A stretch of 64,000 bases of DNA, taken from assembly GCA_934276735.1 (NCBI GenBank), contig CAKQTG010000002.1:270638-334637 (forward strand), given 5' to 3'. Made by a program: the position numbers and the translations under genes. Source of the DNA: an uncultured Alphaproteobacteria bacterium (GTDB taxonomy: Bacteria > Pseudomonadota > Alphaproteobacteria > Rs-D84). The notes below the pieces were generated by a model. That model did not search any database, had not been told where the DNA came from, and saw only the letters and a list, made by a program, of their open reading frames with translations. Numbering within the stretch: position 1 is the first letter of the stretch; each line of letters starts with the position of its first letter. Positions 831 to 43,078 of the stretch are shown here, piece by piece.

Positions 831-1580
831 CTATTTTGTTTTCTGGGGCATTGTGGCCAGGCGAGCAAATTCGCGTTCCAGACACGCCTTTAACCGCGGA
901 CTGTTGTTATGTGGCGCGACGTGAATTTCGGGTAATGCGCCCTGCTCTTGTATTCCGTATGCGATGATTTCAGATTTTTCATTGAAATAAACCAATGCGG
1001 TCGCGTGTTCCTGGTTTATCAATTTATAATCAAATGTCGCCTGGTATGCCGATGCAATTTCACGACAACGGTTGCGAACCTTGGGCAGCGCATAAAACAT
1101 CGGCACCACTGTACACGCAGGTTTTTTTGCCACCTGTTTTAACATATTGTTTGACAGCGTTGCCCCAACAGGAACCTGGGAATATCCCATTTTGCAATAG
1201 AACTGAACCGCGTGCGCCAAAGAAATCAATTCAATATTTTTTGCACCGATAATACGTTCCACCTGGGTCAACAATCTGCGCCCGACACCACGTCCCTGGT
1301 ATTCTGGGCGAACATACAAACTGTACACGCATACGTCGCCGTCAAAGCAACTGCCACGGGCAAACCCAATCATTTTGTTGATATCATACGCCGCAAATGC
1401 GAATTTCGCCCCAGACAACGACCAATACCGTTTCAGGTCACGTTTAACCCACAAATCTTCGTCTGGGGACAATGAAAACTTATAGTTATGTTCCAACGCC
1501 GCCGCACGAATACTGATAAAATCGTCCCAAATTTTGGGTGCAGCCTGGTCAAATATTGGAAATATTTTTATTTCGCTCAT
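831..1580 (-). CDS. GNAT family N-acetyltransferase with an N-terminal extra domain
   Basis: The motif RPEYQGRGVGRRLL is an acetyl-CoA binding Q/RxxGxG/A motif. The start was trimmed to MSEIKI (ATG at 1580). Confidence 0.55.
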   Translation of the reverse strand: MSEIKIFPIFDQAAPKIWDDFISIRAAALEHNYKFSLSPDEDLWVKRDLKRYWSLSGAKFAFAAYDINKMIGFARGSCFDGDVCVYSLYVRPEYQGRGVGRRLLTQVERIIGAKNIELISLAHAVQFYCKMGYSQVPVGATLSNNMLKQVAKKPACTVVPMFYALPKVRNRCREIASAYQATFDYKLINQEHATALVYFNEKSEIIAYGIQEQGALPEIHVAPHNNSPRLKACLEREFARLATMPQKTK

Positions 1581-1612: not shown

Positions 1613-2344
1613 TCAATATTTGATTTCAAGATTCTTGAAATCATCGTGCGTTGCGCCCGGAACAATCACAATATCCGAATCGCGCGCAAACCCAATCGTC
1701 AATTGCATTGGGACAACACGGTCACGCGTGCCGACATAGTGCAACTGGGGCACATCGGGCAACGCATCCATATCCAGCGACCGCGTCAACGGCGTATCAC
1801 CAAAATGCGCCGTCCATGCACCATGATTCAGGACACCCCCAATTGTAATCCACCGCATGACGTTTATTTCCGGGTGCCGCGTTATAACCAGGCCTGACAC
1901 CATCGCGCCGCCCGAATATCCAACCAACACAACAGGACGCGCACCGGCCACAGATTTTATTGCCGCTGCCACAGAATCAATAACATCGGCCGAAAAACGT
2001 CCGTCGGTCCAATCATGGCGCGAACAGGCGGGCGACATAATAAACTGGCACGGGCGCGCGATATACACGACGTTTGCCGCCGTATCACGCGTGGCCAAAT
2101 CGCGCACAAATGTGCCACGCGGCGTCGGGTCGGACGTTGGACGGCCACTGGAATTAAATGCGTGACCGTCACCTTCTATATAAATATGCGTTGGGGCGCG
2201 TGTGTCGGTGATTTTTTGCCACGTGGCAATTTGGTATTTACCTGCATCAACTGTTATCGGCGCGAATCCCAACAATTCGCCACGGGGCGCATGCGCGCAA
2301 GCGCATAAAACCAATACAAACAAAATCCACAGACGACGTATCAT
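1613..2344 (-). CDS. secreted alpha/beta-hydrolase fold protein
   Basis: There is a signal peptide, MIRRLWILFVLVLCACAHA. GYSGG is a nucleophile-elbow motif of the GxSxG type. Confidence 0.45.
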   Translation of the reverse strand: MIRRLWILFVLVLCACAHAPRGELLGFAPITVDAGKYQIATWQKITDTRAPTHIYIEGDGHAFNSSGRPTSDPTPRGTFVRDLATRDTAANVVYIARPCQFIMSPACSRHDWTDGRFSADVIDSVAAAIKSVAGARPVVLVGYSGGAMVSGLVITRHPEINVMRWITIGGVLNHGAWTAHFGDTPLTRSLDMDALPDVPQLHYVGTRDRVVPMQLTIGFARDSDIVIVPGATHDDFKNLEIKY

Positions 2345-18495: not shown

Positions 18496-19387
18496 CTAAC
18501 TTTTTATTGATTATATCTTTGTAATGATCATACAATTCATATCCTACAAAATGTCTCTTGTTTTCTTTTGCAACTTTAAGTGTTGTTCCGCTACCCGCGA
18601 AAGGATCAAGTATCAATTCACCAACAAAAGAATACAATCTAATCAATCTGCGAGCTATTTCTTCAGGCATGATAGCTGAATGTATACCAAATGCAAGATC
18701 GCCTTTTCCAGGGATTGGTATGTTCCAAATCTGCTTTGTATATTCGACCCACTCTTGCTGTGTTAGCTGGCTGGCATCTTTTATATCCTGTGGCAACCCA
18801 TTTTCAGGACTTCCTTCTTTCACAAATACTACTATGAATTCACACGAATTCTGGGCATAAAAATTACGTGGATATGGATAACTGCCAAACATCAATTTCT
18901 TGGACGAATTTGTTCTGTTCCATATAAACAAATCCAATAAAAATAATTTTGTGTTTTTTAATATTGACTGTTGTATGTGACTCTGTAAATCAAATATGTC
19001 CCTGTTATAATGCGTGCACATTTGGGATTTCAACATCGGCATTAACGGAACATTTATGCACAACTTACCATTAGGCTTCAACACCCTTTCACATTCTTTC
19101 CAAATTTTTACTAAACCTGCGATATAATCATCAAAATCGGCATAAGCCCCCATATCATCACACTTCCTTTCAGAATGTTTACAATCTTGGTGACCATCTT
19201 TACTGTAATCTTTTATGTTAAAATATGGCGGTGATGTCACAATAACCTGAACCGAATTATCCGGCAATTCTGACATTTTTTCCGAACTTTTGTAGAAAAC
19301 TTTATCAATGTATTCTTTCATTTTCTTTCCTTGCTGAAAACTTAGCCCAAAACAATGGATAAAGTCAAGGGAACAATCAAAAAACAT
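18467..19387 (-). CDS. beta-class DNA methyltransferase (SPPY type, N4-cytosine or N6-adenine)
   Basis: Motif IV is VTSPPYFNIKDY and motif I is LDPFAGSGTT. It overlaps the next methylase gene by 29 nt. Confidence 0.75.
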   Translation of the reverse strand: MFFDCSLDFIHCFGLSFQQGKKMKEYIDKVFYKSSEKMSELPDNSVQVIVTSPPYFNIKDYSKDGHQDCKHSERKCDDMGAYADFDDYIAGLVKIWKECERVLKPNGKLCINVPLMPMLKSQMCTHYNRDIFDLQSHIQQSILKNTKLFLLDLFIWNRTNSSKKLMFGSYPYPRNFYAQNSCEFIVVFVKEGSPENGLPQDIKDASQLTQQEWVEYTKQIWNIPIPGKGDLAFGIHSAIMPEEIARRLIRLYSFVGELILDPFAGSGTTLKVAKENKRHFVGYELYDHYKDIINKKLGASDGLFGD

Positions 19388-20025: not shown

Positions 20026-20101
20026 TCGGGCATAGTTCAGTCGGTAGAACAACGGACTGTTAATCCGTATGTCACTGGTTCGAGTCCAGTTGCCCGAGCC
20101 A
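20026..20101 (+). tRNA. tRNA-Asn (anticodon GTT)
   Basis: A cloverleaf can be drawn with acceptor TCGGGCA/TGCCCGA, D-arm GTTC-AGTCGGTA-GAAC, anticodon arm ACGGA-CTGTTAA-TCCGT and T-arm ACTGG-TTCGAGT-CCAGT. CCA is encoded. Confidence 0.85.
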
Positions 20102-20746: not shown

Positions 20747-21262
20747 ATGGAGAATGGCATGCAACCAAAACACCAAGTGTTTTTTAGTTTTCATTTTGCC
20801 CGCGATGCCTGGCGAGCAGGTCAGGTAAGAAACATTAGAGATTTGGACGGCAATACGCCCGTGTCTGATAATGATTGGGAACAGGTTAAACGCGGCGGGG
20901 ATGCGGCGATTCGAACTTGGATAGAAAATCAATTGAAATACAAATCTTGTACAATTGTTTTGATAGGGACGGAAACTGCAAGTCGTCCATGGGTTAATTA
21001 TGAAATTAAGCGAAGTTGGGAGCTTGGCAAAGGCGTGTTGGGGATTTATGTGCATAATTTGCAAGACCGCATGTGCACTCAATCGCCCAAAGGGTCAAAC
21101 CCTTTTGCAAATTTTAATTTGAATGGTGTGCCTTTTGATAAAATTGTTCCAGTATATTGTGTCGAAGATTGGGAACCAAGCACAGAAGTTTATAAAAAAA
21201 TTGCCACAAATATTGGTTCGTGGGTGGAGAACGCAATTAGGATCCGGCAATTATACCCTTAA
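20747..21262 (+). CDS. TIR-like domain protein (DUF1863/MTH538-type, ThsB-like)
   Basis: The N-terminus VFFSFHFARDAWRAGQV and the segment CTIVLIG...SRPWVNYEIKRSWELGKG are hallmarks of the DUF1863 TIR-like family. Confidence 0.65.
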   Translation: MENGMQPKHQVFFSFHFARDAWRAGQVRNIRDLDGNTPVSDNDWEQVKRGGDAAIRTWIENQLKYKSCTIVLIGTETASRPWVNYEIKRSWELGKGVLGIYVHNLQDRMCTQSPKGSNPFANFNLNGVPFDKIVPVYCVEDWEPSTEVYKKIATNIGSWVENAIRIRQLYP

Positions 21263-21267
21263 CAGAT

Positions 21268-21921
21268 ATGGAGGAATATATGAGCAATTATTTTAATATA
21301 AAAGATTTCGATACACTTGAATTAAAATCACCCCCACGGCATTTTAATAATAGTTTTGCGTGTGACGAGTCGATTGGCAAACAGGGTGCGTATGATATAT
21401 TTATCTCCCATAGCTCTGCAAACAGGGAGCTTATCAGCAAATTACGGCAAGTTTTGGAAGAACGGTTTGGTTTGTCCGCATATATTGATTGGGATGAAGA
21501 TGGTGGTACAATAAGAGACGAAATTACAGAAAAAATAAAAAACGCTATGGATCGTTCTAAATCTCTATTATATGTAAAGACATCAGAATCTGACGACTCT
21601 CAATGGGTAGCATGGGAGGTAGGAAGGTTCGATGCAAAAAAACCAGATAATATTGCTGTCTTGCTTATTGAAGATGATAAATTTACCGAGGACACATGGC
21701 GACACAGAGAGTTTTTAAAGGATTATCAAATATTAGATAAAACAGATAATATTAAAGATTTTGTAAATATGGGACATAAAAAATTCTTCACTGCCAAACA
21801 AGCGCGCGACCTATCTTCTAAACTCAATTCTGGTGCAATCGCGGCAGTGGCTGCAATGGGGTCGTTATGCGATGTAACCCCCGGGTTAGGAACGCCAACG
21901 AAATACTTTGGTGACGAATAA
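21268..21921 (+). CDS. TIR domain protein (canonical bacterial TIR, ThsB-like)
   Basis: The sequence YDIFISHSSANRE...SAYIDWDE...SQWVAWEVGRF contains a candidate catalytic Glu in WEVG. The RBS is ggagg, and the gene is 5 nt downstream of the previous gene. Confidence 0.7.
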   Translation: MEEYMSNYFNIKDFDTLELKSPPRHFNNSFACDESIGKQGAYDIFISHSSANRELISKLRQVLEERFGLSAYIDWDEDGGTIRDEITEKIKNAMDRSKSLLYVKTSESDDSQWVAWEVGRFDAKKPDNIAVLLIEDDKFTEDTWRHREFLKDYQILDKTDNIKDFVNMGHKKFFTAKQARDLSSKLNSGAIAAVAAMGSLCDVTPGLGTPTKYFGDE

Positions 21922-21927
21922 TATAAA

Positions 21928-22458
21928 ATGAGAAAATTTACGAACACCAAACCCAGTTTATGGTATTTTAGACTTGCATTTGTAATTTTGAGCAGGTTCC
22001 CTAATTGTAAATGTCGCTGGGGTGCGAGAGACAAATTTATTATTTGGGAATATACGTATGTTTCACAAATAACACACAAGGCGTTCACGTTTTGTTTAAA
22101 TTACGAAATCTATCAAGAGCCTCGAATATGGGTTGTAGAGCCAGACCTTACACAACTTGCAGCTACAGAATTAAAACACGTTTATCCCCAACACTGCAAT
22201 CGTTTATGCTTGTTTCACCCCCACGATGCGCCATGGAATACACGCAAGGATATTATTAACACTATCATTACATGGGCGTTTTTATGGGTCGAATTTTATG
22301 AGTCCTGGAAAATTACAGGTTTTTGGTATGGAGCAGAGGCAGATCATACTCCAATACAAAAAACACACCAAAGCAATTTATCAAGGGAAACGCACCAGAA
22401 AAAACACTATAATAAAAATCTTCCTAAATATTTGAAAAACCATCCAATTAGATACTAG
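21928..22458 (+). CDS. hypothetical protein, third gene of the TIR operon (candidate effector)
   Basis: The 176 aa, Trp-rich product has no recognisable motif. It starts 6 nt after the TIR gene stop. Confidence 0.45.
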   Translation: MRKFTNTKPSLWYFRLAFVILSRFPNCKCRWGARDKFIIWEYTYVSQITHKAFTFCLNYEIYQEPRIWVVEPDLTQLAATELKHVYPQHCNRLCLFHPHDAPWNTRKDIINTIITWAFLWVEFYESWKITGFWYGAEADHTPIQKTHQSNLSRETHQKKHYNKNLPKYLKNHPIRY

Positions 22459-22569
22459 CCGTGTGTTTTATCGATATGACATTTGCTAACTTTTTACAAT
22501 CTTGTTTATAACCTCAATAAAACCATTCCCATTTTTCGCTGAATAAAGCCAGTGCTGTTTTTTTGCCTG

Positions 22570-23079
22570 TTATAGCTTTAGATGGCAGGTCCCTATTGTT
22601 GATAGGACATAATATACTACTAGTATCAATATGATAAAAAATGCAATCTTATAAACACTAAGCGATTTTGAGTTTAGAACATCTGACATACGAATGTACG
22701 TTTGTATATTTGCGATATTCATATCAAATAGAGCACATTTGTCCGCCAACGCATCGGTATATTTTTGGCGATAACACCGTTCCAGCCACAAATAATAAGC
22801 ATCAAACCAGAAAAAGCTAAGTGTCAATATAATTGCTAAAACAAGCAAGGCTACGTTTGGCAGTTTAAAATACAAAGCTATGAGTCCGCCGACAGAAACC
22901 ATAAACCAATTTTTTATCGAAAAGGAATTGCCATTCATTCTGGCAATAATATTCTGCAACATTTCTAAAAATTTAATTTTTTCGCTTTGCATACGATTAA
23001 CGATACTACACATCGATATAAATGCAAGTAAAACCAGAATTTTTGCACAAAAACCGGACTTCCGCAAAAAAACAAGCAC
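22570..23079 (-). CDS. small multi-pass membrane protein
   Basis: There are three to four hydrophobic helices across 169 aa. The start is ambiguous and could be 23079, 23010 or 22992. Confidence 0.4.
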   Translation of the reverse strand: MLVFLRKSGFCAKILVLLAFISMCSIVNRMQSEKIKFLEMLQNIIARMNGNSFSIKNWFMVSVGGLIALYFKLPNVALLVLAIILTLSFFWFDAYYLWLERCYRQKYTDALADKCALFDMNIANIQTYIRMSDVLNSKSLSVYKIAFFIILILVVYYVLSTIGTCHLKL

Positions 23080-24141: not shown

Positions 24142-25836
24142 TTATTTTGATAAGCGCACATCTATTAAATCTTTTATCTCGCTATTCTTGAATAAATTGT
24201 TATATGAAAATTTTGATCCAAGTTCTTCTTGCTTTTTGCTTGCTATATTTTTGACAACCTCTTCTGCTTTTTCTATATTTTTATTAAAAAGAGCCACAAC
24301 TTCTTTTTCTTGGATATTGGGAAGTTTTAAATTAGCTTCTATAGATGATAATGCATACATTATTGCATAAATAGCATGCGAAAAGAAAGTATCTGTTGCT
24401 GCTTTATTTTTTATTTCTTTCCAAACAATGTATGCGTTATACAATTTATTTTGTATATTATTTTCTAGTTCTTTTTCAGAAAAAACAGAATCAAAATACT
24501 GGTTAAAAACAGATATTTTTGACACCTTCGCTTTTCCCGGCTCATTCAAAAACATAGCCACATAAGCCTGTAATAAATTTTCATTAGTTATGCTATCATT
24601 ATAATCTGTTAGTTCCTGTCCAACTTTTACAATTAAAGCAACTCCCTTGGTTTTAAAATACAGAGCTACTTTTTCTTGAATAAGATCATTAGATTTTAAA
24701 TCAACAACATTGATTGGGTTTTGGGAATTTGTTGCTTGTGCTATTTGTTGCATAATATCAGGATCTTTAGTTTTATACACACGCAATAACACTTTCGCCT
24801 TACTTAATTGTTCATAATTTTGTGATTCCCGATAAAATTTTGATAAAGCAGCAACGGTTTGCCCACCGTTAACTATACTCGGGCGCGTCAAAGTCAAGTT
24901 TATTTTTTCCTTATTACCTGTATGACCAGTTTTATAATCATCTGCTATAATTGTAATACCATTATTAAAAAACCAAAACAGTTCTGGTTTTTCACTTGCT
25001 GTTTTAATAATTTCTTTATTAATTTTACTTTTAGGCAAAAGATATCTCACATTGGAATTCAACAAAGCACCTTCATTGTTTTGTTTATAAAAATCAACTA
25101 AGTCACTTAAATATACTTCGGTTATAAACCCCGTTATAACCTGTGGTAAATCTTGTTTTAGAGTTTTGTCATCACAAATAATTTTTATTGTCGCACTATC
25201 AGGAACCTTCTCTTTTAATCCAAAATTTGTACTATCTATAAAATTTACATTTATCTCGTTGTTTATAGCTGTTTCTACAGCATCAGATTGCTTTAACACT
25301 TCCCCAATTATACCATTCGTTGAAAAGAAAACATGTACTCTGAGAGTAGGCCAATCATTTTGCTCACAAACCTCTCTAAGTTTATCAAGTTTTGATTTTA
25401 GCAACAAATTTGTAGTAGATAAATTCTCGCCCTTTTTTATTTTTTCTACGTTTTTTAGACATAATTCTATTTCATCTTGTGTAAATGTATTTTTGGCCTT
25501 TTTAGAAACGTGTTTGGCTTGTACTACAATCACATCCATAAATTTTTCATTAGAATTTGGCAGGGACACTATACTTTCATCATCAAAATATAGCAAATCT
25601 ATTTTGTTATCGCCACTGCCGTCCGTTAAGAAACAAATCGAAGAATTTATATCTACTTTTTTATATTCCATTATAGTAACTACAGCAGTAGCCAAAGAGT
25701 TAATATATTCTTTGTTTTGCAAACCTTGCCCATAATGCTTTTTAGCATATTCAGACTTTTTTATTAGCTTAGTGTTATCTTCTATTAGTCTATTAAATTT
25801 ATTTAAAGCATATTCATTTATGGAGGCATTAGACAT
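24142..25836 (-). CDS. AIPR family abortive-infection protein
   Basis: The N-terminal region reads CFLTDGSGDNKIDLLYFDDESIV, resembling the AIPR DGSGDxGID core. The gene is 564 aa and starts 10 bp after the R gene stop. Confidence 0.6.
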   Translation of the reverse strand: MSNASINEYALNKFNRLIEDNTKLIKKSEYAKKHYGQGLQNKEYINSLATAVVTIMEYKKVDINSSICFLTDGSGDNKIDLLYFDDESIVSLPNSNEKFMDVIVVQAKHVSKKAKNTFTQDEIELCLKNVEKIKKGENLSTTNLLLKSKLDKLREVCEQNDWPTLRVHVFFSTNGIIGEVLKQSDAVETAINNEINVNFIDSTNFGLKEKVPDSATIKIICDDKTLKQDLPQVITGFITEVYLSDLVDFYKQNNEGALLNSNVRYLLPKSKINKEIIKTASEKPELFWFFNNGITIIADDYKTGHTGNKEKINLTLTRPSIVNGGQTVAALSKFYRESQNYEQLSKAKVLLRVYKTKDPDIMQQIAQATNSQNPINVVDLKSNDLIQEKVALYFKTKGVALIVKVGQELTDYNDSITNENLLQAYVAMFLNEPGKAKVSKISVFNQYFDSVFSEKELENNIQNKLYNAYIVWKEIKNKAATDTFFSHAIYAIMYALSSIEANLKLPNIQEKEVVALFNKNIEKAEEVVKNIASKKQEELGSKFSYNNLFKNSEIKDLIDVRLSK

Positions 25837-25846
25837 TTTATTTACC

Positions 25847-26743
25847 TTACCTTAATAGCCCTTCCAACACACCTTTTTGAACCATGTCGATGTTAAGGAT
25901 ATAATCTGTTGTATCAAAAGTATCGCGTAACGGTCGCTGAGTTTTCTGCCAGCCTAAACCATCCGTTATCCATATAAACTGGTGCCCGTCTTTTGTCCAC
26001 TGATGATAAATATCTGCATATTCGCCTGCGGTTGATTTTAATTTTGATCCGCCACCGCCATAGAAATTTGTTTCTATCAGATATAGTTTATTAGGGGTAT
26101 TTATAGCAAAATCAACACGCTTGGATGATTTATTCACAATAATATTTTTACTCCATTTTCTATAAATTTTATCTGCTGTCGCCTGCGCAATATATTCATA
26201 ACCATTACGGTCACAAATATCTTTTATAAAATATTCCATCAAGTTTTCCATTGATGTGCCACTGCGGTTCTTGCGCCCATTTGAATCAAGTCCAACTTCT
26301 ACACCAAGAAAATAATCTGGTATAGATTTAATTGTACGGTCAGATACTAAATCAAGGAAGCCACTTGCTTTCATAAATAGGACACCATCCTCTGCAGACA
26401 TAGGCTTTGAAAAGTCAAAGCATTTAAGTCCAAAAGTTTTTATATCTGAAACAAGTTTAATTTTCTTTTCTCTATCGGCTAACAGTGCCGGTATAACACC
26501 TATAATTTTTGGATATTCCTTTAATAAATCTTTTGCTGCTTTTTCAACATCCGCCTTACCAATCAGAGTATTCAATAAGTTTAGTGCAATCTCTGCTTCG
26601 TGATAATTATTGATAACTTTTGACCAGTTAACAAAATAATCCCAAGATGTTATACTTTCTTTTAGGGTTGAAATCAAATAACCAAAAACGTCATCTTCGT
26701 TCTTGCAGCCCAAAAGTTCATCAAAAATTTTAGAATACTTCAT
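25847..26743 (-). CDS. Type II restriction endonuclease, DpnII/MboI-like (GATC-type system inferred)
   Basis: This is the third gene of a Dam-like M / beta-class M / R cassette with the same order and similar sizes to dpnM-dpnA-dpnB. It overlaps the upstream methylase gene by 4 nt. The product is 298 aa. Confidence 0.5.
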   Translation of the reverse strand: MKYSKIFDELLGCKNEDDVFGYLISTLKESITSWDYFVNWSKVINNYHEAEIALNLLNTLIGKADVEKAAKDLLKEYPKIIGVIPALLADREKKIKLVSDIKTFGLKCFDFSKPMSAEDGVLFMKASGFLDLVSDRTIKSIPDYFLGVEVGLDSNGRKNRSGTSMENLMEYFIKDICDRNGYEYIAQATADKIYRKWSKNIIVNKSSKRVDFAINTPNKLYLIETNFYGGGGSKLKSTAGEYADIYHQWTKDGHQFIWITDGLGWQKTQRPLRDTFDTTDYILNIDMVQKGVLEGLLR

Positions 26744-27525
26744 TTTATTCCTTTCTTTTCAAGGATATCATACAGCCTTTTTTCTGCCAATTCAACAAAT
26801 TGCGTTTCCTGTTCTATACCGACAAACATTCTGTCATATTTTAATGCCGCAACCCCAGTTGTACCACTGCCCATAAAAGGATCTAATATTAAATCGCCCA
26901 GATTTGTACAACATAAAATTATTCTTTCCAATAAATCCAAAGGCTTTTGTGTTGGATGCTTGCCAAAAGTTTTTTCTGATTTTGATGGCGTTGGAATAGA
27001 CCAAACACTGCGCATCTGGCAATCTGGCTTTTTCAAAATATCTTTTGGGAATGAACCACATTTCATGGCATCGTAATTAAATATATGTTTCGCGTTCTTA
27101 CTTTTTCTCGCCCAGATAAGTGTTTCATGGCTCGCGGTAAAGTATCTACAAGACATATTTGGACTAGCATTTGGTTTATACCACGCAACATCATTTAATA
27201 TATGAAAGCCCAACAACTGCATTGCAAAGCCACATGAGTATATACTGTGGTATGTACCACTTATCCAAATTGTGCCATTTGGTTTTAACACTCGCCAGCA
27301 TGCAGAAAGCCACTTTTTATGAAACTCAAAATCATTCATCAGTCCGTGCGACTCGTCCCACTTGCCTTTATTAACCGATACAACTTGACCATTTTGGCAC
27401 GTTATCCCCCCATTTGACAACATATAAGGCGGATCCGCAAAAATCATATCAAAGGTATTTTCTGGAATCTTTTCCAGACACGTTAAGCAATCTTCACAAT
27501 AAAGGCGAAAAGGTTTCTTAGTCAT
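26740..27525 (-). CDS. beta-class N6-adenine DNA methyltransferase (DpnA-like)
   Basis: Motif IV is IFADPPYMLSNGG near the N-terminus and motif I is LDPFMGSGTTGVAA near the C-terminus. Confidence 0.8.
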   Translation of the reverse strand: MTKKPFRLYCEDCLTCLEKIPENTFDMIFADPPYMLSNGGITCQNGQVVSVNKGKWDESHGLMNDFEFHKKWLSACWRVLKPNGTIWISGTYHSIYSCGFAMQLLGFHILNDVAWYKPNASPNMSCRYFTASHETLIWARKSKNAKHIFNYDAMKCGSFPKDILKKPDCQMRSVWSIPTPSKSEKTFGKHPTQKPLDLLERIILCCTNLGDLILDPFMGSGTTGVAALKYDRMFVGIEQETQFVELAEKRLYDILEKKGIK

Positions 27526-28450
27526 AATTAGTTATCAATAACTCACGAATAGCACTGCGCCCGTCTGCATTTGCATTTATCAAACGCTTTGCAAGTATTC
27601 TATTTATATTATAGTCTTGGTATAAATCATCAAAGAATGTGTCTTTTATATAATTTGTTGGATCAGAATTACTTAACATTTGTAAAGCACCCGCTTTATC
27701 ACACGCTTCAAAAACATTCTTAAGGCGAATTTGCTCATCATCATTAAAATCCCCAACAGCATAAGAATTAAACGAAGATGTTTTTCTAATCGGGCGATAT
27801 GGTGGGTCGTAATAGATAAACGTATCTTTATTTACATACTCTTGAACAGAACTAAAATCTGTTTGGATAATAGTCGCAATCTGTAAAGCGTCTGATACAT
27901 TGCGCAAATTTTCTGCGTCTAATATTCTTGGGTTGGTATACTTACCCATCGGAACATTAAACATATTTTTCGAATTAACACGAAACAATCCATTAAAACA
28001 CGTTCTGTTTAAGAATATGGTCAACGCTACACGTCTGACAAACCGCTGATTATAAATATTTGCATCGACGGTTTTGTCCATGTTGTTATATTCATCACGC
28101 CTTGCGTAATAATATTCTTTTTTATCTTCTGTATGATTATACTCTGCACTTATTTTTGTCAGTTCAACTATCAATTTTTCAACATCATGTTTGATAACAT
28201 TATACAGAATAACCAACTCAGGATTGATATCAAACAAGAAAGCCTCTTTGATTGAGAACCGATTATAAATATCGAAGAACACAGCCCCACCACCAACAAA
28301 GGGTTCTATGTATCTTTTTATCCCACCCATTTTCAATTTTAAGGGCAGTTTTTCATCGATTTTATCTAATAGCTGTCCCTTGCCCCCTGCCCATTTTAAT
28401 ACAGGTTTGCACTCAATATAATCCGCTAATTTTGCTGGCAGTGGTGACAA
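27518..28450 (-). CDS. Dam-family (alpha-class) N6-adenine DNA methyltransferase (DpnM-like)
   Basis: Motif I is EPFVGGGAVFFDI near the N-terminus and motif IV is IYYDPPYRP. The Dam family recognises GATC. Confidence 0.8.
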   Translation of the reverse strand: MSPLPAKLADYIECKPVLKWAGGKGQLLDKIDEKLPLKLKMGGIKRYIEPFVGGGAVFFDIYNRFSIKEAFLFDINPELVILYNVIKHDVEKLIVELTKISAEYNHTEDKKEYYYARRDEYNNMDKTVDANIYNQRFVRRVALTIFLNRTCFNGLFRVNSKNMFNVPMGKYTNPRILDAENLRNVSDALQIATIIQTDFSSVQEYVNKDTFIYYDPPYRPIRKTSSFNSYAVGDFNDDEQIRLKNVFEACDKAGALQMLSNSDPTNYIKDTFFDDLYQDYNINRILAKRLINANADGRSAIRELLITNYD

Positions 28451-31041: not shown

Positions 31042-31747
31042 TTTTTATCATCCGTTGTGTATTATTATAAATTGTTTCCGCCATTGTTTGCGCAGTGCAG
31101 CCAACCAAATCCGCAATTTGCGCAACCGTGCGCGGCAAAATCCCGCGTGCGACTGAAATTGACGCCGCATCTGATTCAACCAGAATGCGGTCTGGGTCAA
31201 TCGCGCGGGCCGCCACCCCAGGATTTGCCCCGAACGAAAAGTATGCATTTGCGTGCCGCATTATGGCCGAAACAATTTCCGGCGTGCCCCGAAATCCATG
31301 CAGTACCACTGCCGGTGGCATTTTTTGCGTGGCAAATATGTGCAGAATTTTATCCCATGCGCGAACACAGTGAATATGCGCAATGCGCCCAAATTCGCGC
31401 GCTAAATCCAATTGGCGAATAAATACGGGCATTTGCGCATCTATATCGCCACGCGACGCGTCCAGCCCTATTTCACCGACCATCAGTTCGGGATTCGAGC
31501 GCAATAATTGCGCCATCTGGTCCGGTAAAGCGCACGACAATTCATCTACATACCACGGATGAACGCCAATCGCACCCGCCCCGCCACCCACACGCGTGGC
31601 ATCAACCGCGACCGACCAATCGCACGGGCGCGCAGAATTATATATAAATCCACAAACCGCGCCATCGGGCACTGGGGTTACATAATGACAATGCGCATCA
31701 ATATATTTTTGCATATGTTCAGTATATCTGTTTTTTGCGATTTGCAA
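31034..31747 (-). CDS. TatD family metal-dependent hydrolase
   Basis: The N-terminal IDAHCH and the motifs GEIGLD and HCVRAW follow the TatD pattern. Confidence 0.7.
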   Translation of the reverse strand: MQIAKNRYTEHMQKYIDAHCHYVTPVPDGAVCGFIYNSARPCDWSVAVDATRVGGGAGAIGVHPWYVDELSCALPDQMAQLLRSNPELMVGEIGLDASRGDIDAQMPVFIRQLDLAREFGRIAHIHCVRAWDKILHIFATQKMPPAVVLHGFRGTPEIVSAIMRHANAYFSFGANPGVAARAIDPDRILVESDAASISVARGILPRTVAQIADLVGCTAQTMAETIYNNTQRMIKNG

Positions 31748-34358
31748 ACAATATTTTTCCCAGTATCCCGATTGGAATCACCATCGCGGCCAGCAATAAA
31801 ATCGACCACCACTGGTGCCCAGCTAATGGCACGGTATTAAACACGACGCCATCGTATTGGACCAAAACAAACACGCCCACAAATACCATTGCCGCGATAT
31901 AAACAAAGCGCATGTTTTGCCCCAGTCCCGCAAACAGATTTAGACGCGCTGTTCTGATGTTAAATCCGTTCAGCATTGCAACCCAGACCAGCAACACGAA
32001 ACGCGCCGTCATATACTGGCCATCGGCAAAGATGCCAACATTGTGCATCAGCCACAGTCCCGCAAACAGCGCCATAAACACCGCCGTGTATCCGACGATT
32101 TCCCACTTTATCGCGCGTGTCAGCATTGGCGTCCCCTTGGGCACCGGCGGAACATCAAAGTATTCTGGCTTTTCCGGCTCGCCCCCAAACGCCAGGCTGT
32201 TTAGACTGTCCATCAGGATATTCACAATCAAAATCTGGCTGGCAACCAATGCCGGCACCGCCCAGACCAATGGGAATATCACACTCAGCAGCACCAACGT
32301 GAAATTTATCGGCAACTGGAACCGCAAGAACATCGTTATGTTATGCATAAACGTGCGCCCCAGTAATACAGATTTTACGATTGATACAAAATTACTGTCG
32401 GTGACGATGATGTCAGCAGCATCCTTGGCCACATCGGTGCCATTGCCCATGGCGTATCCGACATCCGCCTTTTTCAGTGCCGGCGCGTCATTTGTGCCAT
32501 CGCCACACATCCCACAGCACAGGTGTAATTTCTGGGATATTTTAACAATCCGCAGTTTTGTCGTTGGGGTCGCGCGCGCCACAACACGCAATTTTGGCAG
32601 CAAACGCATCAATGCACCATCTGATTTTTGTTCCAATTCCGCCGCGTTGATACATACATCGCTGTCCCCTGACACGATTCCAGCACTGCGCGCAACCGCA
32701 ATCGCGGTTTCCAGGTTGTCGCCCGTTATCATCATTACCTGGACCCCGGCGCGCTGTATCTGTGCGACGGCGTGTGGAACCTCGGGCCGGACACCATCGT
32801 GAATTGTTACCAATGCCACCAGGACCAAATCCGATGGCAATTCGCCCGCCGACGCGGCGCCACCGCGCCGATATGCAATCGCCAATACGCGCTTTGCCTC
32901 GCGTGCAGATGTGGTCAGGATTTTATTTATCACGCGCCGCGAAATTGGCTGGGCGTTTCCCGCATCATCAACATACGACATGACGCGTTCCAAAATGCAT
33001 TCGGGCGCGCCGGTGTAAAACGTCATATTTCCCGCCACACTGGCCGCGGTGAATTTATACTCACTGTCAAATGGCAATTTGTGTTTGATGCGCAATTTGG
33101 CCACGGTTTCAGAATATTGCGCGTCCGGCACCAGTGCCAGTAATGCGCGATCGGTACTGTTTCCGCCACGGATTTCACGGCCAACATATTCCGCGCCATT
33201 TGTCGCAACAATTGCATTTTGTAACAAATGACGCAATTTCGCGGGCCCATGCGCCATATCCAGCGCATCGCCATTGCCACGGAACACATCCGCCACAACC
33301 ATATTTCCATATGTCAGTGTTCCCGTTTTATCGGTGCACAGTAATTGGATATTGCCGGCCTCGGGTATCTTGGCGGGATTCTTTGCCAATATGTTTGCGC
33401 GCGCCATACGACCCGCATTTTGTGATGTCACCAATGAAATAATCAACGGCAATCCCTCGGGCACGGCGGCGATTATAATAACAAATGCCGTGGTCAATAC
33501 GGTGCACACATCGCGAAATATCGCCAGTCCCCCACCCGCCAAATATGCCGTCATACCGCCGGCCGTCCAAACATCCGCGCCCAGCAAGATTACCGCAATA
33601 ATCGCCGCCCCAATAAACCCGAATATGCTGATTTTCTGGGCCAGGTCATCCAGTTGCATCTGCAGTGATGTTTTTTCAGGGGTTATATCCTGCATCATGA
33701 TAATTCCAGCGGCATTTTCTGTGGCGGTGCCAACATTGCTGACCCGCATTATTCCAACGCCCGACGTCACCATTGTGGCGGCAAACAAACTGGATTCATC
33801 TGTGAAATCATCGCCAGATACCGTGCGCCGCACCCCAATTTCAAATGGCGGGCGCGCACCGCGCCACGCGACCTTTGGCGCACTGGCCGATTCACCGTTT
33901 AACGCCGAATTATCCACAGAAATTTGTCCGTCAACCAGGTATCCATCGGCATATATTCCGTCACCCGCGGCCAACGCAACCAAATCACCCACCACAATGT
34001 CGGACGACAATATTCTGGATTTTTGCCCATTGCGAATAACGTTCACATAGTGCACCGAATTCTGGCGACGCAAATCATTGGCGAAACGTTGACTTTTCAG
34101 ACCGGTACTGGTGTTTATTATACTGATTATGACCAGAATCAGACCGATACCAATAACCTCGGTCACATTATCAAAACCAAAGAATGACAGCACCACAAAC
34201 AGCAGCAATAACACCAGCAGTATCAGATTCAGTTTATCCTTGAACGTGTCGGCCCAAAATTGAAACCAGGTTTTCAACCTGGGTTCTGGCAGAACATTTT
34301 TACCATATCGTTGTCGGCTGTTTATTACGTCAGAATCTGACAGTCCTGAAAGTTTCAT
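31719..34358 (-). CDS. cation-transporting P-type ATPase (Mg/Ca-type)
   Basis: The phosphorylation site is CTDKTGTLT. MITGDN and GDGTNDAPALKKADVG are present, and there are 8-10 TM helices. Confidence 0.85.
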   Translation of the reverse strand: MKLSGLSDSDVINSRQRYGKNVLPEPRLKTWFQFWADTFKDKLNLILLVLLLLFVVLSFFGFDNVTEVIGIGLILVIISIINTSTGLKSQRFANDLRRQNSVHYVNVIRNGQKSRILSSDIVVGDLVALAAGDGIYADGYLVDGQISVDNSALNGESASAPKVAWRGARPPFEIGVRRTVSGDDFTDESSLFAATMVTSGVGIMRVSNVGTATENAAGIIMMQDITPEKTSLQMQLDDLAQKISIFGFIGAAIIAVILLGADVWTAGGMTAYLAGGGLAIFRDVCTVLTTAFVIIIAAVPEGLPLIISLVTSQNAGRMARANILAKNPAKIPEAGNIQLLCTDKTGTLTYGNMVVADVFRGNGDALDMAHGPAKLRHLLQNAIVATNGAEYVGREIRGGNSTDRALLALVPDAQYSETVAKLRIKHKLPFDSEYKFTAASVAGNMTFYTGAPECILERVMSYVDDAGNAQPISRRVINKILTTSAREAKRVLAIAYRRGGAASAGELPSDLVLVALVTIHDGVRPEVPHAVAQIQRAGVQVMMITGDNLETAIAVARSAGIVSGDSDVCINAAELEQKSDGALMRLLPKLRVVARATPTTKLRIVKISQKLHLCCGMCGDGTNDAPALKKADVGYAMGNGTDVAKDAADIIVTDSNFVSIVKSVLLGRTFMHNITMFLRFQLPINFTLVLLSVIFPLVWAVPALVASQILIVNILMDSLNSLAFGGEPEKPEYFDVPPVPKGTPMLTRAIKWEIVGYTAVFMALFAGLWLMHNVGIFADGQYMTARFVLLVWVAMLNGFNIRTARLNLFAGLGQNMRFVYIAAMVFVGVFVLVQYDGVVFNTVPLAGHQWWSILLLAAMVIPIGILGKILFANRKKQIY

Positions 34359-34457: not shown

Positions 34458-34990
34458 GTAACAAAGGGGAGCGGCAATGAAAGTATCATTTGTTATGTAT
34501 GATATGCCACATGGGTTTGACTGTATAGATTGCACACCACAGCAACTCAGGTTTTTCGAGAATATGTATCGCCCTGACCAATGGGGACGTTGTATACAGT
34601 TATCTGATGTATCCGGACAAAAACACGCCATTTCTGGACTGTGACGGGCGTGGCGGCACGTTTCTGGGGATGTCAATCGTGTTGCCCGGCATATATCTGC
34701 GCAACACGGACAAATTGGATAAATTCTTTCAAGAATTTTGTAAAAAATACATAGATAACCAGATTGTTTCCACGCGACCAAATGGTGTGCGTCGGTTTCT
34801 GGTGTCACGCCTGGGCACGCCCCAGATGGAAAAGTATATTACAAACGCGCTGAACGAATTTGCGCGCGAACGGCCCGATTTAAATTTCACAGAATCTGCC
34901 GCGCATATATTCAACGCCAATCCAATTCACGATAAACCCGCCCATTTCGGGCGGTTTTTGTGCCAGGATATAGAAAAAATATTTCAAACT
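34458..34990 (+). other. possible frameshifted gene (ORF 34458-34628 continuing in +1 frame from 34607)
   Basis: Two overlapping ORFs in adjacent frames are joined across an A5 run (ggacaaaaacacg). The downstream ORF has no stop before it overlaps the convergent CYTH gene. Confidence 0.25.
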
Positions 34991-35544
34991 CCCTGCTGTT
35001 TGCGCAACATCAGTTCGGGCTTTCCCGCATTTAACTCTGGCGACACAGAGAACCCCAGCGCATCTATGAATGATTGTATTTGTGATTTGATATGCGCAAC
35101 GTCCACATCATCTGCGGTGCAATATTCTACCTCTAAAAACAAGCCAAGATTCGTCACTGTTTCAAACTCAATCATATAATCGCCGGCCCGATATGTGCGT
35201 TTCAAATTGTCAATTTTTACCAATTCACGCAATCCCAATGCATTGATTATGCCGGTCAATATGGTCATATCGCCAACAGTTGTTTCCAATTCTTCCGAAT
35301 ACAACCAAGTATCACCATCAAAATGGTCTTTTTTATACGTAATGTAATTTATACCGTCTTTCTGGCGCGTACGAAAGCAAGCACACAAACGCCCGCCATG
35401 ATCTGGACACAAATCTGTGCGCAATGGGTCATAATAATATGTATCAACAGTATGTTTATTACCGACAAATTCAAAAGATGATAATTTTTGCAACACTGTC
35501 TGCTCGTCTGCAAAAACCTGAACCAAGATTTCAATTTCCTTCAT
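34984..35544 (-). CDS. CYTH domain protein (class IV adenylate cyclase/triphosphatase fold)
   Basis: The N-terminal MKEIEILVQV contains the ExExK signature. The length of 186 aa is typical for CYTH. Confidence 0.55.
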   Translation of the reverse strand: MKEIEILVQVFADEQTVLQKLSSFEFVGNKHTVDTYYYDPLRTDLCPDHGGRLCACFRTRQKDGINYITYKKDHFDGDTWLYSEELETTVGDMTILTGIINALGLRELVKIDNLKRTYRAGDYMIEFETVTNLGLFLEVEYCTADDVDVAHIKSQIQSFIDALGFSVSPELNAGKPELMLRKQQGV

Positions 35545-35973: not shown

Positions 35974-36185
35974 TTCTTACATCCCCCTTGGGTATTATTT
36001 CCCAGTATGCGGGCCAACGCATCCGCTGTCAACAAATTTACGGTCTGGAATTTACCGCCGTAAAATACCGCACAGGTGTTCGTCCGCGATATTTTCAGGC
36101 GTTAAATTTATAAACTCCGGCATATGCGTTTCCTTTTGCCAAATTATAGCACAAAAAACAGCAAGATAAAAACCTTTATCTATCT

Positions 36186-36213
36186 TGACAAAACGAAACT
36201 TTGTATTACAATA
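36186..36213 (+). promoter_or_regulatory. near-consensus sigma70 promoter
   Basis: TTGACA-N16-TACAAT lies 7 nt upstream of the ATG at 36220. Confidence 0.45.
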
Positions 36214-36219
36214 TTCGGT

Positions 36220-37419
36220 ATGGAACACAGACAATATTGTATTTACTGTAACAAAGAAATCACCACCCGCAGCAGCGAGCACGTTATACAAAACGCGCTG
36301 GGCGGCCTGTTGGAATCCGAGGATATTTGTTGTCCTGAATGCAACAATTATATCAGCAAGTATATTGATGCGCCGTTCACCAAGACATTCAACCCAATTA
36401 TCAGCCGCATAGACAATTTTTCCAAGACAAACAACACTAAATCCACACCGCCATGCACAGGCACTGTTTCATATAATGGCCGGGAATACAGCGCAAATAT
36501 CAAAAATGGCAAGGTTGTATCATGCCCTGATTTAAGTCGTGAATTGCGTTGCGATATATCAAAACTGGAAACGCCACCGCAAATTGTATCGTATAATTTT
36601 GATTTGGAAAATACTGCATTTCAGACCGGCATGGCCAAGATTGCATTCAACTATGCAATGTCACAAAACGTGGATTTCAAATACCTGGCGTCTGGTTTGA
36701 TGGTTGAACGCACGGGTAATTCCGTGAATAACATACAGTATAATTACCCTGTTGTGCCGTTTTGCCCGCTGAACCCGGTCGACGCGTTCATAGAAAGTGC
36801 GCCCAACACCACGCCTTTCCACAACATGATTTTGTTTTCCCAGTGTAATGAACTGTGGTGCTATGTCGATTTATTTAATACGTTTCAGTACTATGTATTG
36901 TTATCAGACAATGTACCAAATGGCAAACAGGTATACGCGAATTACACCCAGACGTTGCAAAAACTGAACCGTAATGCGCCAGTATTGGACGATTTGCATG
37001 ACCCGAAAACAGTTATGATTTATGCCCAACAATACGGGGTTGAACCAACCATGAACGCCGCAGAATTTACGCGGCGCGTGAATAATGCCGTGGCAATCAA
37101 ATCGCAAAAGGTGGCGATGTCCAAAATAATTGGTCCGAAAATTGCGAGTATGCCGTTTATGTCAATGATGATGCAAATGCAGGGCGACGCGGCCAGCATG
37201 CAACTGATGTATGATTGTATGCACCTGTATTTTGATGATGATATTTTCCAAGAAAAAAATTTCAGAACCGTGACCCCGGCCCTGGCCGGCGATGGGTCTG
37301 TCGCATACCCGCATGAAATAGTGCGCCTGGTGTCAGAAACCCCAGACATGCTGAGACAATATACAACAATGAAATTCAATAATTTGAATAACCAGTTGCG
37401 CACACAAAAGCAACGATAA
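36220..37419 (+). CDS. HNH-motif protein with a large uncharacterised C-terminal domain (candidate standalone defence nuclease)
   Basis: The N-terminus reads CIYCNKEITTRSSEHVIQNALGG...CCPECNNYIS, which gives two Cys pairs plus H..N. The remaining ~340 aa are unrecognisable. Composition is lower GC than the neighbours. Confidence 0.5.
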   Translation: MEHRQYCIYCNKEITTRSSEHVIQNALGGLLESEDICCPECNNYISKYIDAPFTKTFNPIISRIDNFSKTNNTKSTPPCTGTVSYNGREYSANIKNGKVVSCPDLSRELRCDISKLETPPQIVSYNFDLENTAFQTGMAKIAFNYAMSQNVDFKYLASGLMVERTGNSVNNIQYNYPVVPFCPLNPVDAFIESAPNTTPFHNMILFSQCNELWCYVDLFNTFQYYVLLSDNVPNGKQVYANYTQTLQKLNRNAPVLDDLHDPKTVMIYAQQYGVEPTMNAAEFTRRVNNAVAIKSQKVAMSKIIGPKIASMPFMSMMMQMQGDAASMQLMYDCMHLYFDDDIFQEKNFRTVTPALAGDGSVAYPHEIVRLVSETPDMLRQYTTMKFNNLNNQLRTQKQR

Positions 37420-37519
37420 TATAAAATATGATCGCGGCTCCCTCGCCCACGCGCTGCATGGGACTGCGGGGCATTCGTGACAACGCGCCCGTCAAATTGA
37501 CGTGCGCGTTTACTCATTG

Positions 37520-37771
37520 TCGAACCCCTTCTTCGGGTTCTTCGTCCCTGCGCCCCGGAAAAATTAAACGGCCGCATTAGCGACCGTTGAATTTTTCTGG
37601 TGGGGACACAGGGATTGGCTGCGCCGACCTTGGGCAATCGCCTGGCGGCGACCGGCGTTATTCCGCCTTTGCCCGGCGGTTCGAACCCCTTCTTCGGGTT
37701 CTTCGTCCCGTGTCCGGCAAAAATTAAAACGCCGACAAGCGGCGTTTGAATTTTTGGTGGGGACACAGGGA
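37520..37771. repeat. two ~95 bp direct-repeat units, each a terminator hairpin plus a tRNA-Lys 3'-end copy
   Basis: Units lie at 37520-37614 and 37676-37771. They share ttcgaaccccttcttcgggttcttcgtccc, a terminator-like hairpin, gaattttt and tggtggggacacaggga. The second unit runs into the tRNA gene itself. Confidence 0.6.
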
Positions 37772-37830
37772 CTCGAACCCTGGACCCAATGATTAAGAGT
37801 CATTTGCTCTACCAACTGAGCTATGTCCCC
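37755..37830 (-). tRNA. tRNA-Lys (anticodon CTT)
   Basis: The reverse complement reads GGGGACATAGCTCAGTTGGTAGAGCAAATGACTCTTAATCATTGGGTCCAGGGTTCGAGTCCCTGTGTCCCCACCA, and a full cloverleaf can be drawn. Confidence 0.85.
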
Positions 37831-42514: not shown

Positions 42515-43078
42515 ATGGCACGAATTTTGCAAATTCGCCGGGGCACCACCGCGCAAAATGATAATTTTACAGGACTGGCCGGGGAAATAACCATGGACAC
42601 AGAAACCAAGACACTGCGTGTGCACGATGGCGAAACGCTGGGCGGCGTTACACTGGCGCGCGCCGACGCAATTGCGGACGCATCATTTGATATAACAACG
42701 GTTTCCGATGATTTTTGGAACGCACTGTTTGCGCGTATGGGCGCGACCACCCCAACACTGATGTCATCGCGCGAGTTGCCCATCCAATCGGACGTCGTTT
42801 CAACATATACATTTAATACAACGCGCACACCGATTTTTGCGCGCGCTGTGCTGGTATGCAACACGGATGACGCCGGATACACCGCGGGCGACACGGTTGC
42901 CGCGTTTGGCATTGGCGCGCGCACCAATCCCGCCCCAAACGTCCGCCAGTCTGACGATGGCGTCACGGTGCAACTGGTTATCGGATCTGACGCGTTTTGG
43001 GTATCCAATCCCCAGGACGGCACGTCCACCCCAATCACCACCACCGCATGGCGTATGAAATACCTAGTTTACTGTTGA
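42515..43078 (+). CDS. phage tail-fibre N-terminal-like protein (orphan)
   Basis: The N-terminus reads ILQIRRGTTAQNDNFTGLAGEITMDTETKTLRVHDGETLGG, matching the conserved tail-fibre N-terminal pattern (RRGT..W....L..GE.G.ETDT..L.IGDG.T.W..L). Confidence 0.4.
   Translation: MARILQIRRGTTAQNDNFTGLAGEITMDTETKTLRVHDGETLGGVTLARADAIADASFDITTVSDDFWNALFARMGATTPTLMSSRELPIQSDVVSTYTFNTTRTPIFARAVLVCNTDDAGYTAGDTVAAFGIGARTNPAPNVRQSDDGVTVQLVIGSDAFWVSNPQDGTSTPITTTAWRMKYLVYC

Follow-up and report, generated by a model that had tools for sequence, protein, structure and literature searches.

The window analyzed here, a stretch of 64,000 nucleotides (64 kb) from an uncultured alphaproteobacterium of the Rs-D84 lineage (contig CAKQTG010000002.1), carries a gene for a protein of 399 residues in which an N-terminal HNH nuclease domain is permanently fused to a body of ~340 residues with no match to a known fold. 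Our best explanation, which is plausible though still short of probable, is that this gene encodes a single-gene nuclease directed against foreign DNA, similar in kind to type IV restriction enzymes and belonging to an uncharacterized family that is mobile in Firmicutes and was domesticated in Rs-D84. The anatomy of the protein, its conservation and distribution, the genomic contexts of its homologues and the layout of its promoter can be observed directly, and it is from these that we infer the function. The features of the gene and its product are listed below, with positions counted along the window.

36185..36190, + strand: −35 hexamer TTGACA, followed by AAA (read from the sequence)
36207..36212, + strand: −10 hexamer TACAAT, with a 16-nt spacer to the −35 hexamer (read from the sequence)
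36220..36222, + strand: ATG start codon, 7 nt (attcggt) 3' of the −10 box (read from the sequence)
36220..37419, + strand: coding sequence of the 399-residue HNH protein, stop codon included (open reading frame [ORF] call)
36238..36390, + strand: HNH_5 zinc-finger (ββα-metal) nuclease domain, residues 7-57 (Pfam PF14279)
36403..36969, + strand: β-rich middle domain, residues ~62-250, family-specific (predicted secondary structure)
36997..37416, + strand: helical C-terminal domain, residues ~260-399 (predicted secondary structure)
37482..37510, + strand: GC-rich hairpin shortly after the stop codon (read from the sequence; part of a computed fold, region z = −2.6)

The HNH_5 head, its body and the family

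The N-terminal part of the protein matches the Pfam model HNH_5 (PF14279) at residues 7-57 with E=2.2e-12 and 47.2 bits, against a cutoff of 27.5, and the same domain is recognized in 40 of 40 relatives. The motif reads C7-x2-C10...E20-H21...N25...C37-C38-x2-C41-N42, in which C7, C10, E20, H21, N25, C38, C41 and N42 are invariant in 40 homologues. The catalytic histidine, the structural and the metal-binding asparagine and both CxxC zinc pairs are all intact, which bears out the N-terminal HNH-like zinc finger noticed in a sequence-only reading that preceded this work, and nuclease activity may be expected. The nearest solved relatives of the domain are of the IscB/Cas9 type (E 0.026-0.04, with the HNH motif aligned), and phmmer and profile hmmsearch against PDB sequences retrieved HNH domains only, at E ≥ 0.026.

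The ~340 residues that follow had been called unrecognizable, and so they are: residues ~60-399 find nothing in Pfam, NCBIfam, PADLOC, PHROGs or PDB sequences, either as a single sequence or as a 40-member profile. An AlphaFold2 model based on the 40-sequence alignment (pLDDT 88, pTM 0.86) predicts a small HNH head, a β-rich middle domain and a helical C-terminal domain, and a model of the body only (residues 61-399, pLDDT 87) repeats the same predicted secondary structure. Foldseek searches with the full-length model against PDB and BFVD, and with the body-only model against PDB, returned nothing under E=0.03, the best E values being 0.15 and 0.23; recurring hits to sliding clamps, PCNA and MHC-II were dismissed as noise (TM ≤ 0.14, probability ≤ 0.1). 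The C-terminal part, in which a housekeeping match would have told against the sequence-only reading, is thus confidently modeled and matches neither a housekeeping enzyme nor anything else, leaving 85% of the protein unexplained.

The middle domain conserves K140, E192, H201, D/E217, Q223 and Q244, and the C-terminal domain, which has a variable loop at ~300-345, conserves FR348-349, YP363-364 and Y381..K385F386. Outside the HNH domain, K140, A146, E192, H201, F206, Q223 and Q244 are invariant, or nearly so, at 22-44% identity and might make up a site for binding or a second catalytic center. A middle domain of the PD-(D/E)xK or RNase-H-like kind, which the order of secondary-structure elements had brought to mind, was considered and rejected, its acidic and histidine residues lying at the wrong positions and a fold match being absent.

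A word-indexed search returned 331 clusters with full-length similarity to the protein, and an exhaustive profile search of 1.84 billion representatives returned 1108 clusters (defined at 50% identity) with E<1e-3 and 108 with E<1e-30. The family includes a longer variant of 450-540 residues, which has the same head and body joined by a lengthened linker. We sought alternative N-terminal effectors on the same body in 61 distant relatives and found none bar one weak match to RE_TdeIII; because 58 of these 61 carry HNH_5 and no other Pfam match occurs among them, the body is, judging from these relatives, essentially an obligate companion of HNH_5 and not a module shuffled among effectors. Database entries annotate the family just as 'HNH endonuclease', and in the literature on PF14279/HNH_5 we found no functional study of an HNH head combined with a ~340-residue body. 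A survey of His-Me finger nucleases lists a bacterial group without assigned function, Group 8 or 'HNH_5-only' (Jablonska et al. 2017, PMC5714182), which it does not describe further and which resembles the present family in having PF14279 as the sole defining domain; the family may belong to that group.

Scanning one genome per GTDB species gave 70 loci. About 45 of these are in Candidatus (Ca.) Enterousia and related uncultured gut Alphaproteobacteria, at 49-97% identity to the window protein (the nearest, at 97%, being that of 'uncultured Rickettsiales UMGS1304'), and about 20 in Clostridia, Lachnospiraceae, Tissierella, Selenomonadaceae, Acidaminococcaceae and Fibrobacter, at 36-51% identity. 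A relative of 482 residues is present on Klebsiella/Pluralibacter plasmids amid copies of IS26 and IS110; when this plasmid homologue was searched in E. coli genomes, no match was obtained. In one Bacillota metagenome-assembled genome the homologue (locus L085, 8001-9653) is called as a 550-residue fusion with an N-terminal GNAT domain (Acetyltransf_3).

Copies in Firmicutes travel as accessory cargo of conjugative and integrative elements, prophages and defense islands. In the integrative and conjugative element (ICE) of Blautia obeum, a copy indexed in 248 blocks of the searched collection, the gene comes directly after those for MobC and the relaxase, with two ArdA genes beside it; in Clostridium perfringens an integrative element next to rlmH has it as the outermost gene on one edge; a prophage copy is situated between ERF/RusA/SSB and terminase genes; and in integrative mobilizable elements (IMEs) of the MobL type it adjoins integrases or a serine recombinase. 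In Tissierella the gene stands in a defense island between Gabija and Kiwa/Hachiman with an integrase alongside, and in Selenomonadaceae it is preceded by an AAA_15/21 gene and a reverse transcriptase gene. The copy of Anaerotignum sp. MB30-C6 (L064, 10001-11207) has an N-terminal frameshift and an adjacent relaxase gene. These Firmicutes contexts point to accessory or defense roles. The defense-island association that the sequence-only reading had proposed to look for among homologues is therefore present in Firmicutes (Tissierella and Selenomonadaceae, other copies being cargo of an ICE, of IMEs or of a prophage); extended to mobile genetic elements (MGEs), it also covers the plasmid homologues, but not most of the alphaproteobacterial ones.

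The gene moreover stands alone, as had been supposed. All-against-all clustering of the neighbors at 57 loci revealed no conserved partner gene (the commonest neighbor cluster occurs at 9 of the 57) and no linked methyltransferase, and direct comparison showed the downstream ORFs in four Firmicutes contexts to be unrelated. An HTH_3 gene of 353-358 residues immediately upstream was rejected as a partner, for it is confined to one group of mobilizable elements and was judged element-specific.

Promoter layout and descent in Rs-D84

The sequence-only reading had described TTGACA-N16-TACAAT ending 7 nt before the ATG, and this arrangement stands, although its start coordinate was one base off (the TTGACA begins at 36185). 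The promoter scores 11/12 and is the top promoter match in a 2.7-kb scan; sites scoring at least 11/12 number 8 in the whole window, both strands included, against 1.8 predicted by shuffles. Since no Shine-Dalgarno (SD) motif precedes ATG 36220 in the window and the −10 box is 7 nt from it, the layout is leaderless at the sequence level. A discriminator of 7 nt makes the A of this ATG the expected initiating nucleotide, which would give a leaderless mRNA.

Most database entries use an alternative in-frame start, ATG 36124, giving 431 residues. This reading crosses the promoter, and its extension is not kept in a relative of 91% identity (P0010/L006); we have taken 36220 as the true start for these reasons, and the 431-residue annotation (extension 36124-36219) is probably a start-codon misannotation. 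The gene had also been thought lower in GC than the neighboring lipoprotein and CYTH genes, which is wrong: its GC content is 43.6%, as against 40.4% and 40.6%, respectively, and 45.8% for the window. Beyond the stop codon, the hairpin at 37482..37510 has no T-run and is retained in L005 and L007, and in L008 with altered loop bases (L005-L008 being four close relatives of the window locus); the transcript may end here.

The most robust new result of our analysis is the conservation of the promoter layout, which we compared between 37 alphaproteobacterial loci, one per species, and 18 loci of Firmicutes. An exact TTGACA, usually within TTGACAAA, is combined with a −10 box in 36 of the 37 alphaproteobacterial loci, the spacer being 16-18 nt and the ATG lying 5-10 nt past the −10 box, and only 2 of the 37 have an SD-like motif. 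The promoter-abutting layout is found in none of the 18 Firmicutes loci, 14 of which have an ordinary SD-like motif. It persists where the upstream gene differs, the sequence 5' of the −35 hexamer being unrelated between synteny groups, and its recurrence in 36 of 37 orthologous loci of other species places it beyond chance. The captured gene would thus have gained a leaderless expression signal, or one with a leader of at most 3 nt, that has been kept since.

Leaderless mRNAs are known from the cI gene of phage λ, transcribed from P_RM, and from many genes in Caulobacter and Actinobacteria. The present layout, predicted from sequence, resembles them in the absence of an SD motif and in a −10 box ~7 nt from the AUG; it differs in being a lineage-specific feature of one horizontally acquired gene (36 of 37 species), which contrasts with SD-led homologues in the donor phylum. 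Within the window the layout is rare, since two other genes have it under relaxed criteria only: a GNAT acetyltransferase gene of 249 residues (1580..831, − strand), with TTGACA-N17-TACATT close before its ATG, and an ORF of 243 residues (2344..1613, − strand), with a strong promoter in the same position. The promoters of these two genes end 7-11 nt ahead of the ATG, and both genes may be leaderless too.

In a neighbor-joining (NJ) tree without support values, with the plasmid homologue as root, the copies of the Alphaproteobacteria all fall into a single clade inside a grade of Firmicutes and Fibrobacter. The simplest reading of this topology would be one capture from a mobile element of the Firmicutes type followed by vertical descent. 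Among species-level genomes of Rs-D84, 37 carry the gene (a count of carriers only), and the genomes of Ca. Enterousia and Rs-D84 are reduced, 0.75-1.0 Mb in size (PMC12306168). The locus is syntenic within subclades, and the HNH protein is better conserved than its neighbors: it is 87% identical to that of L008, where the syntenic neighbors are mostly 57-82% identical, and 64% identical to that of L022, where the neighbors are 41% and 38% identical. Values of dN/dS against four relatives (0.08-0.13) indicate strong purifying selection over the whole protein; by region, codons 1-60 have a dN of 0, the middle domain a dN/dS of 0.06-0.11 and the C-terminal domain one of 0.18-0.27.

Between the window and L005, identity is 98-99% in the flanks and only 90-95% in the part of the gene that encodes the middle domain (36350-36950), with dS of 0.25 in this patch and ~0.02 in its neighbors; such a mosaic suggests allelic recombination within the HNH gene. 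The stretch just 5' of the gene (31722-34358 and 34987-35544) is variable between close relatives. Among L005-L008, the P-type ATPase gene is shared by the window with L006 only, and the CYTH gene with L005 only.

The tRNA-Lys gene and the upstream defense region

Downstream of the HNH gene lie a tRNA gene and a pair of repeat units, with the following features.

37520..37614, no strand assigned: repeat unit A, made up of a 29-nt conserved block, a hairpin resembling a terminator and, at 37598-37614, a 17-nt copy of the tRNA-Lys 3' end (from the sequence)
37681..37771, no strand assigned: repeat unit B, laid out as unit A and ending in the genuine tRNA-Lys 3' end (from the sequence)
37755..37830, − strand: tRNA-Lys (anticodon CTT), convergent with the HNH gene (ARAGORN; Rfam tRNA, 76 bits)

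The tRNA-Lys neighbor and the duplicated tRNA-end units of the sequence-only reading are real: the tRNA gene is 336 nt downstream of the HNH gene, and two copies of the 17-nt 3' end TGGTGGGGACACAGGGA are present, at 37598 and 37755, one in each of two repeat units of ~95 nt. Its further suggestion, that a tRNA hotspot harbors an element here, does not hold. No bracketing of the att type was found, for both copies of the 17-mer are downstream of the gene, 157 nt apart, with none upstream and no integrase nearby, and the close relatives all keep the HNH gene in place. Between stop codon and tRNA-Lys there is no repeat unit in L006, one in L007 and two in the window and L005, the order of the units being swapped between the latter two. 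Because the repeats are only downstream, an integrase is absent and the gene is kept in relatives, this arrangement indicates that the HNH gene is not cargo of a tRNA-Lys island and that the repeats are a local tandem duplication. Both unequal recombination and remnants of integration events were considered as the origin of the units. Across species, 13 of 37 alphaproteobacterial loci, and the window as well, have a tRNA gene no more than 1 kb away, six different tRNAs being involved; this hints at a bias, but common ancestry confounds it. In the window the anticodon of tRNA-Lys is CTT, and in L005-L008 it is TTT, a difference of a single base at the wobble position in an otherwise near-identical gene.

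On its other side, the HNH gene is preceded at some distance by a region rich in defense genes, comprising the features below.

16478-19387, − strand: type II restriction-modification (R-M) system, with a restriction endonuclease (REase) of 410 residues (PADLOC REase_II, E=1.5e-117) and, after it, two adjacent N6_N4 methyltransferases (DPPY and SPPY motifs)
20026-20101: tRNA-Asn
20747-23079: two ThsB-like TIR proteins (E=3e-66 and 3e-29), an E2-like protein (E=4e-29) and, on the opposite strand, PDC-M50A
24145-25836, − strand: AbiU/AIPR gene
25850-28450, − strand: complete R-M system of the DpnII type, its REase (DpnII) being accompanied by an N6_N4 methyltransferase and a Dam-like methyltransferase of the D12 kind

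The window genome thus shows a heavy investment in defense (two R-M systems, AbiU and the TIR/E2 cluster) ~7-20 kb upstream of the HNH gene. The window has four DNA methyltransferase genes, each with the REase of its own R-M system. The block at ~20.1-29.1 kb (~9 kb) is missing from L006 and L008, and by this comparison it is a variable defense island at tRNA-Asn in a genome under ~1 Mb; the distance from tRNA-Asn to the HNH gene is ~8.6 kb in L006 and L008 as against 16.2 kb in the window. The cluster at 20747-23079 follows tRNA-Asn directly. As it shows no ThsA, it would better be read as a candidate defense system of TIR/E2 type than as canonical Thoeris. The HNH gene itself lies ~7 kb past the island edge, in the conserved flank, so that its association with the island is loose rather than tight. 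Between the two are a 158-residue ORF and genes for an E1-like protein, a TatD-like protein, a P-type ATPase, a CYTH protein and a lipoprotein, and the immediate neighbors of the HNH gene are ordinary genes.

Further along, at 42518-43078 (+ strand), a protein of 186 residues with an Mtd_N domain (major tropism determinant, N-terminal; E=4e-14) is encoded just behind a coiled-coil-like protein of 835 residues without Pfam match. The Mtd_N protein could be a receptor-binding protein that is phage-derived or of the type found with diversity-generating retroelements.

Proposed function and its alternatives

In the scheme that we propose, an ancestor of gut Rs-D84 and Ca. Enterousia would have captured one lineage of the family, which would then have been inherited vertically, and the captured gene would have been re-equipped with a consensus σ70 promoter whose transcription start lies at or within ~3 nt of the AUG. 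The outcome would be a leaderless, SD-independent mRNA and a protein made constitutively. The body would recognize something in incoming foreign DNA that host DNA lacks, a modification or a structure for example, and the HNH head would cut this foreign DNA, with H21 as the general base, N42 as a metal ligand and the two CxxC pairs holding zinc. The result would be a partner-less restriction or anti-MGE nuclease resembling those of type IV. That the promoter is constitutive and close to consensus speaks for a protein that does no harm to its host's own DNA, and we propose that constitutive expression is tolerated because of this. A modular model of nuclease plus sensor is established for partner-less restriction enzymes (PMC12191111).

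One close comparison is with type IV HNH REases (such as McrA, ScoMcrA and the EVE-HNH enzyme VcaM4I). Like these, the present protein is a single polypeptide combining HNH with a large second domain, has no methyltransferase partner and is carried by mobile elements and defense islands; the description of type IV enzymes as nucleases without cognate methyltransferase fits a gene with no conserved neighbor in 57 loci. It differs from them in having an HNH domain of subtype HNH_5 at the N-terminus, in that its body is not of the PUA/SRA/EVE/YTH, winged-helix or EndoIII-like kind and matches nothing, any modification dependence being putative, and in that this body occurs without other nuclease types, bar the one weak RE_TdeIII match. 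The HNH subtype is shared with PtuB of the Septu system, the HNH partner of the AAA_15/21 ATPase PtuA, PF14279 being the model for AAA15/21-associated HNH proteins (PMC11464382). However, such an ATPase is absent from the window and from 56 of the 57 loci, the exception being one Selenomonadaceae locus with an AAA_15/21 gene two genes upstream, and the protein is about twice as long as PtuB, with an unrelated body of ~340 residues. PADLOC gives no full-length match to PtuB for the window protein, PtuB being matched in only 2 of 40 relatives (E=2e-4). Among single-protein sensor-nuclease defense systems, Shedu (10.1101/2023.08.10.552793) is similar in concept, being a single gene that combines a nuclease with a regulatory or sensor part and occurs in defense islands, but its nuclease is of the PD-(D/E)xK type, and there is no relation in sequence or structure.

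Several observations weigh against an anti-foreign-DNA nuclease of this kind. PADLOC-DB 2.0 and NCBIfam have no match for the window HNH protein, and the weak PADLOC matches to PtuB in 2 of 40 relatives cover the HNH domain only. Neither Pfam nor Foldseek yields a match of the body to a modified-DNA reader: nothing recognizable as PUA, SRA, EVE, YTH, winged helix or iEndoIII was found, and the 40 relatives have no Pfam domain beyond HNH_5. The body is not paired with other effectors, unlike typical swappable sensor modules, and the tree behind the single-capture view is of the NJ type without support values. The alphaproteobacterial neighbors are housekeeping genes (GrpE/TIM, NrdD/LGT/ProRS and MetK/MreB/RpoZ), and PADLOC found nothing among the unannotated ones. 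Defense genes are usually patchy and fast-evolving, so that the pattern in Rs-D84 (37 species, syntenic, slowly evolving and with mostly housekeeping neighbors) is atypical for defense and fits a housekeeping role equally well.

The latter pattern is the strength of the first alternative, namely a domesticated housekeeping nuclease that, once captured, would have come to serve repair, resolution of recombination intermediates or chromosome maintenance in gene-poor Rs-D84 and would for this reason be retained by most species and expressed constitutively. It agrees with carriage by 37 species-level genomes of a lineage of 0.75-1.0 Mb (PMC12306168), though this is a count of carriers alone, and with the syntenic position in subclades, a conservation exceeding that of the neighbors, dN/dS of ~0.1, the consensus promoter and the housekeeping neighbors; there are also weak matches of the HNH part to Endonuclease_7, a junction resolvase, in 9 of 40 relatives. 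We nonetheless consider it unlikely, for the same family is plainly accessory cargo of MGEs and defense islands in Firmicutes and on plasmids, and searches of PDB sequences, Pfam and Foldseek reveal no similarity to any repair enzyme.

No better placed is a trigger-activated abortive-infection nuclease, in which the body would restrain the HNH head until a phage protein or a nucleic-acid cue is sensed and indiscriminate DNA degradation sets in, after the manner of single-protein sensor-nuclease systems. A single gene with a large unexplained body permanently joined to a nuclease, relatives in defense-island and MGE contexts and invariant polar residues (K140, E192, H201 and Q223) that could form a ligand site are all in keeping with such a mechanism, yet the same evidence fits direct restriction alike. 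The near-consensus constitutive promoter and fixation in tiny genomes suggest a low risk of self-toxicity, and Foldseek detects neither oligomerization nor a known sensor fold, so that this mechanism, too, seems improbable to us.

An REase of type II, protected by a methyltransferase encoded elsewhere in the genome, is a very doubtful proposition. HNH enzymes do include type II REases (PMC5714182), the window has four DNA methyltransferase genes, and one distant relative gives the weak RE_TdeIII match; but none of the 57 loci has a methyltransferase linked to the gene, the methyltransferases of the window are paired with their own REases (DpnII; REase_II, E=1.5e-117), and the lone gene moves across phyla, which is hardly possible for an unprotected type II enzyme. 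Least credible of all are a free-standing homing endonuclease of the selfish kind and a small element, integrated at tRNA-Lys, with the gene as cargo: despite the HNH domain, the tRNA genes within 1 kb (13 of 37 alphaproteobacterial loci and the window) and the tRNA 3' end duplicated downstream, the gene is not bracketed by the two 17-mers (both downstream, 157 nt apart) and has no integrase, all close relatives keep it while the repeat units vary from 0 to 2, it is single-copy, syntenic and under purifying selection, it has no intron or intein context, and a search of 50,697 phage genomes gave no match to the family, of which 2.9 million viral contigs contain only 12 relatives. On the strength of these viral counts and of the stable synteny we have rejected the homing-type element. 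Of the sequence-only suggestion of an anti-phage or homing-type element, therefore, the former half survives, as a standalone nuclease whose Firmicutes homologues are linked to defense and MGEs, and the latter does not.

Returning to the anti-foreign-DNA nuclease, a bolder form of it, which is conceivable but rather doubtful, would make the body a new fold that senses foreign DNA or a cue of infection, and the family a new kind of single-protein immune nuclease, one lineage of which would have turned from mobile-element cargo into a constitutive, leaderless 'innate' gene fixed across a clade of genome-reduced gut symbionts. We regard as moderately surprising the combination of a confident model without fold neighbor, the cross-phylum capture of an MGE gene by a lineage with reduced genomes and a strictly conserved leaderless promoter. 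If the body is a new module for recognition of DNA or of a signal, the family would represent a new type of single-gene defense or restriction and could furnish a new nuclease tool. Gut bacteria of humans and animals commonly carry the family, as exemplified by the ICE of Blautia obeum.

For the reduced genomes of Rs-D84, the retention of an accessory-type gene of 1.2 kb in at least 37 species is notable, and its persistence in genomes under 1 Mb argues for a strong selective benefit. The Rs-D84 copies would also be a clean natural example of a gene captured across phyla that gained new expression signals, the SD-led translation of the donor having been replaced by a consensus promoter abutting the AUG and kept through the whole radiation of these genomes of less than 1 Mb.

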